64,000 bases of DNA from Escherichia phage WPEC6. The notes beneath the pieces are model-generated. The model saw only the letters and a program-made list of their open reading frames with translations. It made no database searches and was not told the origin of the DNA. The stretch lies in the sequence record PV763039.1; one strand, 5' to 3'. Both the position numbers and the translations under genes were made by a program. Shown in pieces: positions 45,364-45,482 of this stretch (position 1 is its first letter; the number at the start of each line of letters is the position of its first letter).

Positions 45364-45390
45364 CCTCGCTTCGGCGGGGTTTTTTCGTTT
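45364..45390 (+). terminator. intrinsic terminator after tape measure gene
   Basis: stem CCTCGC / GCGGGG with TTCG loop followed by TTTTTT. Confidence 0.6.
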
Positions 45391-45393
45391 CCC

Positions 45394-45423
45394 TTGACAC
45401 GAAGTTTCTATATGTGTTACAAT
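45394..45423 (+). promoter_or_regulatory. strong sigma70-like promoter candidate
   Basis: TTGACA 45394-45399, 18 bp spacer, TACAAT 45418-45423. Confidence 0.5.
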
Positions 45424-45433
45424 AATCAATATG

Positions 45434-45452
45434 GGAAGATCTTGCATCTTCC
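45434..45452 (+). promoter_or_regulatory. perfect inverted repeat (operator or leader hairpin)
   Basis: GGAAGAT-cttgc-ATCTTCC between the promoter and the ATG at 45483. Confidence 0.45.
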
Positions 45453-45482
45453 TTTTGGCATTATCATTACTACGAGGTTATC

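Follow-up and report, generated by a model that had tools for sequence, protein, structure and literature searches.

Does the short gap between the tail tape-measure gene and the first baseplate gene of a large coliphage divide its structural module into separately transcribed units, and what is the role of the inverted repeat in this gap? The question was raised by a preliminary description of the window, i.e., the whole 64,000-nucleotide stretch of Escherichia phage WPEC6 (PV763039.1) analyzed here, which noted a terminator, a strong promoter, and a perfect palindrome at the junction and proposed a separate, possibly regulated, transcription of the baseplate and fiber genes, with the palindrome as a candidate operator or leader hairpin.

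Gene context of the junction

Judged from its sequence, the window belongs to a Phapecoctavirus, a phAPEC8-like E. coli myovirus of the Stephanstirmvirinae. The region 44800–46300 is 100% identical by megablast to several phAPEC8-like E. coli myoviruses, e.g., Mt1B1_P17 and ESCO37, and most of the window matches Mt1B1_P17 at 92–99.6% identity, with two short blocks at ~79–84%. The arrangement around 28–30 kb is unlike in the two phages, and by sequence the window is a near relative of Mt1B1_P17 and a distinct genome. The tape-measure and baseplate labels of the preliminary description are right because of the family matches of the flanking genes, phrog_16051 upstream and the Dit-like family PF21821 downstream, the latter gene being followed by matches to a Pam3 gp18-like plug, a baseplate hub, and a spike (Table 1). 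The open reading frame (ORF) of the tape-measure protein (TMP) ends in tandem stops, TAATAA, with the stop codon at 45354–45356.

A 54-aa ORF (45331–45495), which WPEC1/2, ETEC-TG, and EP57 list as a hypothetical protein, crosses the terminator, promoter, and hairpin, is lost where the gap differs, and was rejected, as was a mini-ORF from the ATG at 45431, a position that may coincide with the 5' end, which encodes ~31 aa in the window versus 7 aa in L011 and is therefore not conserved. Scanned against Rfam at gathering thresholds, the whole window gave no match, and ARAGORN found no tRNA or tmRNA in it.

Table 1. Coordinates of the junction elements and of the surrounding features of the putative transcription units.
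Feature	Position	Strand	Basis or remarks
Predicted sigma70-type promoter before the portal gene, 11/12	33256	+	Motif scan
Predicted sigma70-type promoter after the portal gene	34948	+	Motif scan
Terminator-like hairpin after the major-capsid gene	38070	+	Scan
Terminator-like hairpin after the tail-tube gene	42559	+	Scan
Tail tape-measure protein gene, 662 aa	43368–45356	+	phrog_16051, E = 0, full length; tape measure in the annotation of NC_052662.1 and NC_020079.1
Predicted intrinsic terminator: 7-bp stem with C(UUCG)G tetraloop (45363–45380), then U-tract	45363–45390	+	Folding; GenBank annotation; stems of relatives
-35 hexamer TTGACA	45394–45399	+	TTGACA in 13/15 and TTGACT in 2/15 junction variants
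Extended -10, TGt + TACAAT, 18-bp spacer from the -35	45415–45423	+	Motif scan; alignment A3
Predicted transcription start, 6–8 nt past the -10	45429–45431	+	Standard sigma70 geometry
Predicted leader stem-loop, 8 pairs including G·U, loop CUUGC	45433–45453	+	-8.7 kcal/mol; identical in Phapecoctavirus and PsgM04F-type lineages but for one U-A to U·G variant
Shine-Dalgarno GAGG	45474–45477	+	5 nt 5' of the ATG at 45483; free of the leader hairpin
Dit-like tail/baseplate protein gene, 233 aa; first gene of the putative unit	45483–46184	+	PF21821, 9e-27; phrog_817
Rest of the putative unit: plug, hub, spike, wedge, and tail-fiber genes, tightly packed	46187–61774	+	ORF map; family matches
First intergenic terminator-like hairpin downstream, GAGGGG-aaat-CCCCTC with T-rich tail; putative end of the unit	61781–61803	+	Scan
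Next intergenic terminator	63865–63884	+	Scan

The terminator and the promoter

Directly after the tape-measure gene, the coding strand carries what makes up a rho-independent terminator, a GC-rich stem-loop with a U-tract behind a stop codon. The hairpin ACCTCGC-TTCG-GCGGGGT (45363–45380) begins 7 nt past the stop codon, has five GC pairs in its 7-bp stem, a UUCG loop and T6, and is followed by TTTTT-CG-TTT. It folds at -11.2 kcal/mol (z = -3.25), and none of 200 shuffles did as well. The terminator that had been placed at 45364–45390 thus stands, and it was already known from GenBank annotation, being annotated at the same site in phAPEC8, Schickermooser, and ASO2A as three independent predictions. 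A UUCG loop occurs again at 6771–6784 of the window, in relatives, and in the terminators t003, t041, and t109 of rV5.

The promoter spans 45394–45423 as TTGACA-18-TGtTACAAT, with the -10 hexamer at 45418–45423, and agrees with the TTGACA-18-TACAAT reported before. It is the sole 11/12 match within 38–54 kb (16 kb; motif scan) and has all the elements of an extended -10 sigma70 promoter, i.e., a -35, a spacer within 16–18 bp, TGn, TAnnnT, and a gene within ~100 nt, whose ATG lies 59 nt downstream. Sites of at least 11/12 with a TG number three in the whole window on both strands versus 0.16 ± 0.37 expected from 100 first-order Markov simulations of the window, far above chance, and the probability of such a site in the 126-nt gap on the correct strand is ~1e-4. 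A second promoter-like match, TTGGCA-18-TATCAT (45455–45484, 10/12), was discarded; its -10 overlaps the start codon, so its transcription start would fall inside the gene. A T4-type late promoter (TATAAATA) or a late class of extended -10 promoters lacking a -35 was likewise rejected, as only three intergenic plus-strand TGnTAnnAT sites (30223, 38060, and 45415) occur in the structural and cassette region.

None of the 60 listed GenBank records annotates the junction promoter as a feature within its match, and several of them have the spurious 54-aa ORF across it, which gives the present assignment some value for annotation. The promoter is thus unannotated, while the kind of element is well known and its parts are textbook ones. 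The preliminary description placed a host-sigma70-type promoter in the middle of the late region; such a promoter is no oddity there, since sigma70-type promoters are found throughout this phage, including those at 33256 and 34948 within the structural module. Counting against the proposed restart of transcription at this site, a near-consensus, activator-independent promoter ahead of baseplate genes predicts early expression, which is unexpected for virion genes.

Conservation of the junction in related phages

Fifteen distinct versions of the junction from ~8 phage groups were gathered from GenBank phages, IMG/VR, and metagenomes. They come from Phapecoctavirus, PsgM04F/phiWec190, phiWec181, Justusliebigvirus, the L011/L051–L056 clade, Citrobacter phage Tr1, L019, L106, and Klebsiella KP13-26/L013, and their Dit-like proteins are 54–100% identical to that of the window. 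TTGAC(A/T), TGn, and TAnnnT recur in all 15 variants at a spacing of 17 or 18 bp, although the spacers are unrelated in sequence; the invariant columns of alignment A3 include the TG and the -10 positions T-12, A-11, A-8, and T-7. A GC hairpin with a T-run follows the TMP stop directly in all variants except the KP13-26 clade, with a UUCG loop in most, and the stems are compensatory between lineages (CCUCGC/GCGGGG, CCCCGC/GCGGGG, GGGGC/GCCCC, CCCGC/GCGGG, and AAUCCCC/GGGGAUU), each being followed by a T-run.

The two elements are also separable. In phiWec181, a gene for a 337-aa CapR/T5orf172 endonuclease-like (homing-endonuclease-like) protein lies on the opposite strand between the terminator and the promoter, and the promoter and leader still adjoin the Dit-like gene despite this insertion. 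In PsgM04F-type phages, ~50 extra bases separate the terminator from the promoter. The gap between terminator and promoter is a naturally permissive insertion site that could be useful for payload engineering. In more distant relatives, only a short GC hairpin was seen at the junction and the promoter was not found; some of these relatives look prophage-type, because they lie on chromosome-sized contigs.

Among Phapecoctavirus phages, 62 of the 75 matching records agree over the 126-nt gap at 99% identity or better. Six diverged phages, which are not independent of one another, show ~3 changes in 756 nt of gap versus ~99 in 4650 nt of flanking coding sequence; the substitutions per site in these non-independent genomes are thus roughly five-fold fewer in the gap, and none of the gap variants hits the -35, the TG, or the -10. 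The terminator and the promoter are very probably functional, as suggested by the conservation in 15 variants, the compensatory stems, and the phiWec181 insertion between the two.

The leader inverted repeat

The perfect 7+5+7 repeat GGAAGAT-cttgc-ATCTTCC is present at 45434–45452, as had been noted, and gains an eighth pair from G45433·T45453. The dyad covers ~+4 to +22 of the predicted transcript, and with the start deduced for it, the hairpin would leave 2–4 unpaired nucleotides at the 5' end. It lies more than 20 nt 5' of the Shine-Dalgarno sequence and leaves the ribosome-binding site untouched. The stability of the repeat is only marginally above chance (-8.7 kcal/mol, z = -1.74; 9 of 200 shuffles were as good), and for the whole leader the fold is no more stable than that of shuffled versions (z = 0.16). 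Perfect 7-bp repeats with 3–8-nt loops number 76 in the window versus ~35 expected by chance. The leader of the portal gene carries a 14-bp hairpin, which needs G·U pairs and folds at -18.2 kcal/mol (z = -5.8).

The sole natural variant within the hairpin, A45446G (anhysbys and L047), changes a U-A pair to U·G, by which the RNA pairing is kept and the DNA dyad is broken. Five of the six variable leader columns fall outside the hairpin, in the linker after it, and compensatory covariation in the hairpin was not detected among the available junction sequences. In the L011/Tr1 clade, the hairpin has shrunk to a 3–4-bp GGG...CCC stem, with the left arm ATATGGGAAGATC conserved and the right arm missing; the leader hairpin is absent from L019 and KP13-26, and Justusliebigvirus and L106 have an unrelated hairpin at the corresponding leader position. 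The Justusliebigvirus repeat begins 2 nt past the -10, so that a transcript with a canonical start would include only ~6 bp of it; a DNA site explains this repeat as well as an RNA does. Taken together, sequence comparison favors a leader RNA hairpin over an operator for the repeat of the window. The leader-hairpin alternative of the preliminary description is thereby backed, namely by the pairing kept in A45446G, by the hairpins that follow other promoters of the phage, and by the comparative evidence.

Part of the leader conservation may come from the initial transcribed sequence and not from structure, because the left arm is kept without the right arm in the L011/Tr1 clade. Carried to its end, this reading would make the repeat functionless: the initial transcribed sequence ATATGGGAAGATC would be constrained by start-site choice and promoter escape, and the right arm would be a lineage-specific accident. 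Conserved downstream regions are known from strong T5 promoters, the L011/L051–L056/Tr1 clade keeps the left arm together with upstream bases while the right arm is missing, the z of the hairpin is as modest as -1.74, and 7-bp repeats are frequent, numbering 76 in the window. However, in all Phapecoctavirus and PsgM04F-type genomes the two arms are equally invariant, in contrast to the variable linker that follows, and hairpins closely downstream of promoters recur genome-wide. We therefore hold a functionless repeat to be unlikely, though worth serious consideration.

The repeat might instead be a DNA operator. In this case, GGAAGAT-N5-ATCTTCC, centered near +13, would be occupied by a dimeric repressor of phage or host origin, and the otherwise constitutive promoter would stay blocked until late infection, in the manner of lac repressor at lacO1. 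Its perfect symmetry, typical size (19 bp), and location directly downstream of the start site are what such a site should have, and a repressor would account for a consensus sigma70 promoter serving late genes. In Justusliebigvirus, a different dyad covers -5 to +24, and the -10 region holds a third copy of GTGATAA; in the KP13-26 clade, the promoter is flanked by a 12-bp dyad. Against this, neither the window nor 150 kb of the sister genome Mt1B1_P17 holds a second copy of the palindrome at its own spacing, even with one mismatch allowed. When the search was extended to spacers of 1–11 nt in Mt1B1_P17 and to IMG/VR, only chance-level matches or the homologous site were recovered in the three sources, and in IMG/VR this dyad and that of Justusliebigvirus each occur once per related viral contig. 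The symmetry is destroyed by A45446G, which keeps the RNA pairing, only the left half is retained in the L011/Tr1 clade, and the dyad sequence is not common to the other promoters of the structural module. Of the features that would mark a repressor operator, a dyad at the promoter or start site is found, whereas further copies and a symmetry kept by variants are not. An operator is accordingly improbable, and the earlier suggestion of one is weakened by the single copy and the broken symmetry. Of the proposed separate start of baseplate and fiber transcription, the terminator followed by a sigma70-type promoter has gained comparative evidence, and the palindrome as its operator has become less likely.

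A proposed transcription-unit boundary in the structural module

We consider the junction, with a probability of roughly 0.7, to be a three-part transcription-unit boundary with a restart for the baseplate and fiber block. The rho-independent terminator would end or strongly attenuate the transcripts of the head, neck, tail-tube, and tape-measure unit, which would start at the sigma70-type promoters near 33256 and 34948. Thirteen bases past the terminator, the extended -10 promoter, of the host sigma70 type and independent of activators, would restart transcription and serve the ~16-kb block of baseplate and tail-fiber genes from the Dit-like gene at 45483 onwards. The new transcript would begin at 45429–45431, with the 8-bp stem-loop at 45433–45453 as its first structured element. 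By analogy, this 5'-terminal stem-loop may act as an mRNA stabilizer that slows the 5'-end-dependent decay of the long mRNA by RppH and RNase E, our best guess, to which we would give a little less than even odds. We infer the promoter activity, the start site, the terminator efficiency, and the stabilizing role of the hairpin.

No plus-strand promoter-like site of at least 10/12 was found between 38 kb and 45363, and two scans found none outside coding sequence in 46187–61774. Transcription from 33–35 kb may drop in steps, by attenuation behind the abundant capsid and tube genes, and the promoter at 45394 would then restore it. This gives a testable transcription map for the phAPEC8-like therapeutic coliphages, with units starting from ~33.3, 34.9, and 45.4 kb and attenuators after the capsid and tube genes. 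A literature search found no transcript start, 3' end, or time-course data for any Stephanstirmvirinae phage, and no transcriptome of Phapecoctavirus, Justusliebigvirus, or Vequintavirinae.

The map would be different if the promoter were unused, its sigma70 match being incidental or a fossil, and if one late transcript ran through a leaky terminator. The terminators at 38070 and 42559 must be leaky as well, because no promoter follows them, and the distant prophage-type relatives have a short GC hairpin without a promoter at this junction. Such a reading is nevertheless very unlikely, given that the elements and their spacing are kept in 15 junction variants through a complete turnover of the spacer, that the promoter of phiWec181 stays beside its gene after the endonuclease-gene insertion, and that the chance expectation for the gap is ~1e-4. 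Lastly, the leader hairpin and the UUUU behind it could be regarded as a transcriptional attenuator or pause site tuning the baseplate-gene output, in view of the TTTT at 45453–45456 after the stem and of a scan that lists the hairpin as terminator-like on the minus strand, but this was rejected as scarcely credible, since the stem is weak and AU-rich, the run of only 3–4 U is too short, the plus strand fails the terminator criteria of the scan, and the U-run is not conserved: PsgM04F-type phages have it in interrupted form (CUCUUUG), and no such run follows the Justusliebigvirus repeat.

Promoter-hairpin cassettes of the early region

Hairpins behind promoters are a regular feature of the early region of the sister genome, where all 19 promoter cassettes, each folded singly, have a hairpin of -8 to -21 kcal/mol that starts ~10–12 nt past the -10. 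The cassette consensus is TTGACA-N17-TAAACT-GTATYACRTA-GGGCGGC-AAUGGU-GCCGCC; the stems differ between copies, and the hairpins combine a conserved AAUGGU/AAUAGU loop with covarying GC stems. Four cassettes of this early type are present in the window at 28.9–30.3 kb. This family of promoter-hairpin cassettes with a conserved loop is more unusual than the junction itself.

The promoter-proximal hairpins might be a systematic, phage-specific mark in Stephanstirmvirinae, with the portal and baseplate leaders carrying their own versions, an idea that we regard as a long shot. If it were true, the repeat at 45433–45453 would be a "baseplate-class" hairpin, and if a phage factor read the hairpins, their classes could provide an early/late switch that is beyond the reach of uniform sigma70 promoters. 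Candidate readers would then be an RNA-binding antiterminator, a nuclease-protection factor, or a translational regulator.

Comparison with known systems

Several known systems resemble single parts of the junction. Like lacO1, the repeat is a perfect dyad centered near +13 of a sigma70 promoter; unlike lacO1, it has no candidate regulator and no second site, and its symmetry is broken in a natural variant. Stem-loops at the 5' terminus are reportedly mRNA stabilizers of the ompA type, a class said to have been described by Emory, Bouvet and Belasco in 1992. The predicted leader hairpin is similar to these in lying a few nucleotides from the predicted 5' end of a long mRNA and far upstream of the ribosome-binding site, whereas the 5' end is a predicted one here, and the stem is weaker (-8.7 kcal/mol) and not kept in all related lineages. 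Hairpins with C(UUCG)G tetraloops are reported to occur in the intercistronic regions of phage T4, by the account of Tuerk and coworkers in 1988, and the junction terminator shares this loop (GC-UUCG-GC), a generic hyperstable loop with nothing distinctive about it.

As a composite of promoter and terminator, the junction recalls the PeSL (promoter-early stem-loop) cassettes of the T4-type phages RB49/phi1, PST, and nt-1 (Arbiol et al., 2010, PMC2839356; Comeau et al., 2014, PMC4122927). As in the definition of PeSLs (PMC2839356), a strong sigma70-like promoter and a stem-loop that terminates transcription share a short intergenic stretch, by which the downstream unit would be insulated, and the site tolerates indels, i.e., the endonuclease gene of phiWec181 and the ~50-nt insert of the PsgM04F type. 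However, PeSLs recur as cassettes that resemble one another and separate small ORFans in hyperplastic early regions, whereas the junction is a single copy among core structural genes and falls outside the class in this respect. [quoted passage not shown] What resembles PeSL repeats in this phage are its early cassettes, and these have no sequence similarity to the junction.

The nearest described counterpart of the junction is the predicted terminator t049 and promoter P048 of rV5 (Vequintavirinae), which lie between gene 49, encoding a 778-aa minor tail protein, and gene 48 (Kropinski et al., 2013, PMC3606486, Tables S3 and S4). The gene order is alike in both phages, running from the tube and chaperones through a long tail protein (gene 49 being the tape measure by position) and the terminator with its predicted promoter to the hub genes. 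Both terminators consist of a GC hairpin and a T-run, and the "late" motif of rV5, TggTAaAAtA, is an extended -10, comparable to TGtTACAATA in the window. In contrast, P048 lacks a recognizable -35 and is a weak, MEME-derived prediction, whereas the -35 of the window matches the consensus; the intergenic DNA of the two phages shows no sequence homology, and both junctions are known as predictions. Sigma70-like promoters have been noted throughout the rV5 genome (PMC3606486). With no dedicated late promoter seen, the present analysis supports the view raised for rV5 that these large myoviruses use host sigma70 promoters even for their virion genes.

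Promoters, terminators and small ORFs

The terminator-promoter design of the tape-measure/baseplate junction recurs once more in the window, in a second composite with a gene downstream at 6851 (see table). The leader hairpin of the portal gene, whose stem makes use of G·U pairs, folds with −18.2 kcal/mol (z = −5.8). Besides the junction promoter, TGtTAATAT near 38060 is the only intergenic TGnTAnnAT on the plus strand of the structural module, and its position abutting the capsid terminator is probably a coincidence. The 54-aa ORF that overlies the terminator, promoter and hairpin of the junction is labelled "hypothetical protein" in WPEC1, WPEC2, ETEC-TG and EP57, and is almost certainly a gene-caller artefact rather than a real gene; PsgM04F carries the annotation of a different ORF, of 30 aa.

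Features of the window and of related phage genomes, with their positions
Feature	Genome	Position	Strand	Context
Terminator hairpin CCCGC-TTCG-GCGGG + T6	window	6771–6790
Promoter TTGACA-17-TGaTAAACT	window	composite 6771–6820		one base 3' of the 6771–6790 terminator
Repeated early-region cassettes	window	28977–30300	+
Sigma70-type promoter TTGACA-17-TATTAT (11/12)	window	33256–33330 region		directly 3' of terminase stop
Portal-gene leader hairpin, 14 bp	window	33293–33323		upstream of portal gene
Promoter TTGACA-17-TAGACT	window	34948		AT-rich tract upstream
TGtTAATAT, extended −10-like, no −35	window	38060–38098 region		3 nt 5' of terminator hairpin
Strong terminator hairpin, 13 bp	window	38070–38098		3' of major-capsid gene
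54-aa GTG ORF	window	45331–45495		covers terminator, promoter, hairpin
337-aa gene, CapR and T5orf172 domains, phrog_681 endonuclease	phiWec181 (LC739534.1)	403–1416	−
Perfect 12-bp inverted repeat TTGTACATCAGT ... ACTGATGTACAA	Klebsiella phage KP13-26 (clade with L013)	1392–1447 region		promoter between arms
Repeated early-region cassettes	Mt1B1_P17 (NC_052662.1)	2173–12304	−

The junction in related phages

In phiWec181 the insertion point of the endonuclease-like gene falls precisely between the terminator of the tape-measure gene and the promoter of the baseplate genes. The gene is oriented toward that terminator, which looks bidirectional, and is itself probably a free-standing homing endonuclease. 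The clade of Klebsiella phage KP13-26 lacks a classic terminator at the junction. Since its annotated ATG (1440) lies only 6 nt 3' of the −10 element and has no Shine-Dalgarno sequence, a transcript from the predicted promoter would be leaderless, and in a read-through transcript the 12-bp stem would bury this ATG.

Across window 44800–46300, the records of Campylobacter phage B15, Acinetobacter phage ABPW7 and Klebsiella phage ZCKP1 are 98.7–100% identical to E. coli phapecoctaviruses. Pseudomonas phage PsgM04F shows ~73% identity across the surrounding 900 nt, and the 3' part of its gap (promoter and leader, 89%) is common to phiWec190 and phiWec181, two E. coli phages. The host names attached to these records should be treated with caution.

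Early-region promoter-hairpin cassettes

Window 28886–30264 matches, in inverted orientation, 5412–6794 of Mt1B1_P17, where that genome has its early cassettes. No tRNA genes were found in the window, whereas an 11-tRNA cluster in Mt1B1_P17 adjoins the spanin/terminase region homologous to that of the window. The difference, compared over window 27.5–30.3 kb against NC_052662.1, may reflect either a real rearrangement or linear records that were opened or assembled differently.

The cassettes occur one per intergenic gap of ~80–90 nt, and their consensus consists of a promoter, TTGACA-N17/18-TAAACT/TAAGAT, followed 3' of the −10 by GTATYACRTA and a GC hairpin, GGGCGGC-AAUGGU-GCCGCC. All 19 copies examined fold, with −8 to −21 kcal/mol. 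The stems vary from copy to copy while the loop, AAUGGU or AAUAGU, is kept, which hints that the hairpin may be a protein-binding RNA; the cassettes returned no match in an Rfam search. Overall they resemble the promoter-early stem-loop (PeSL) cassettes of T4-type phages, but differ from them in that the hairpin lies downstream of the −10 and is transcribed.
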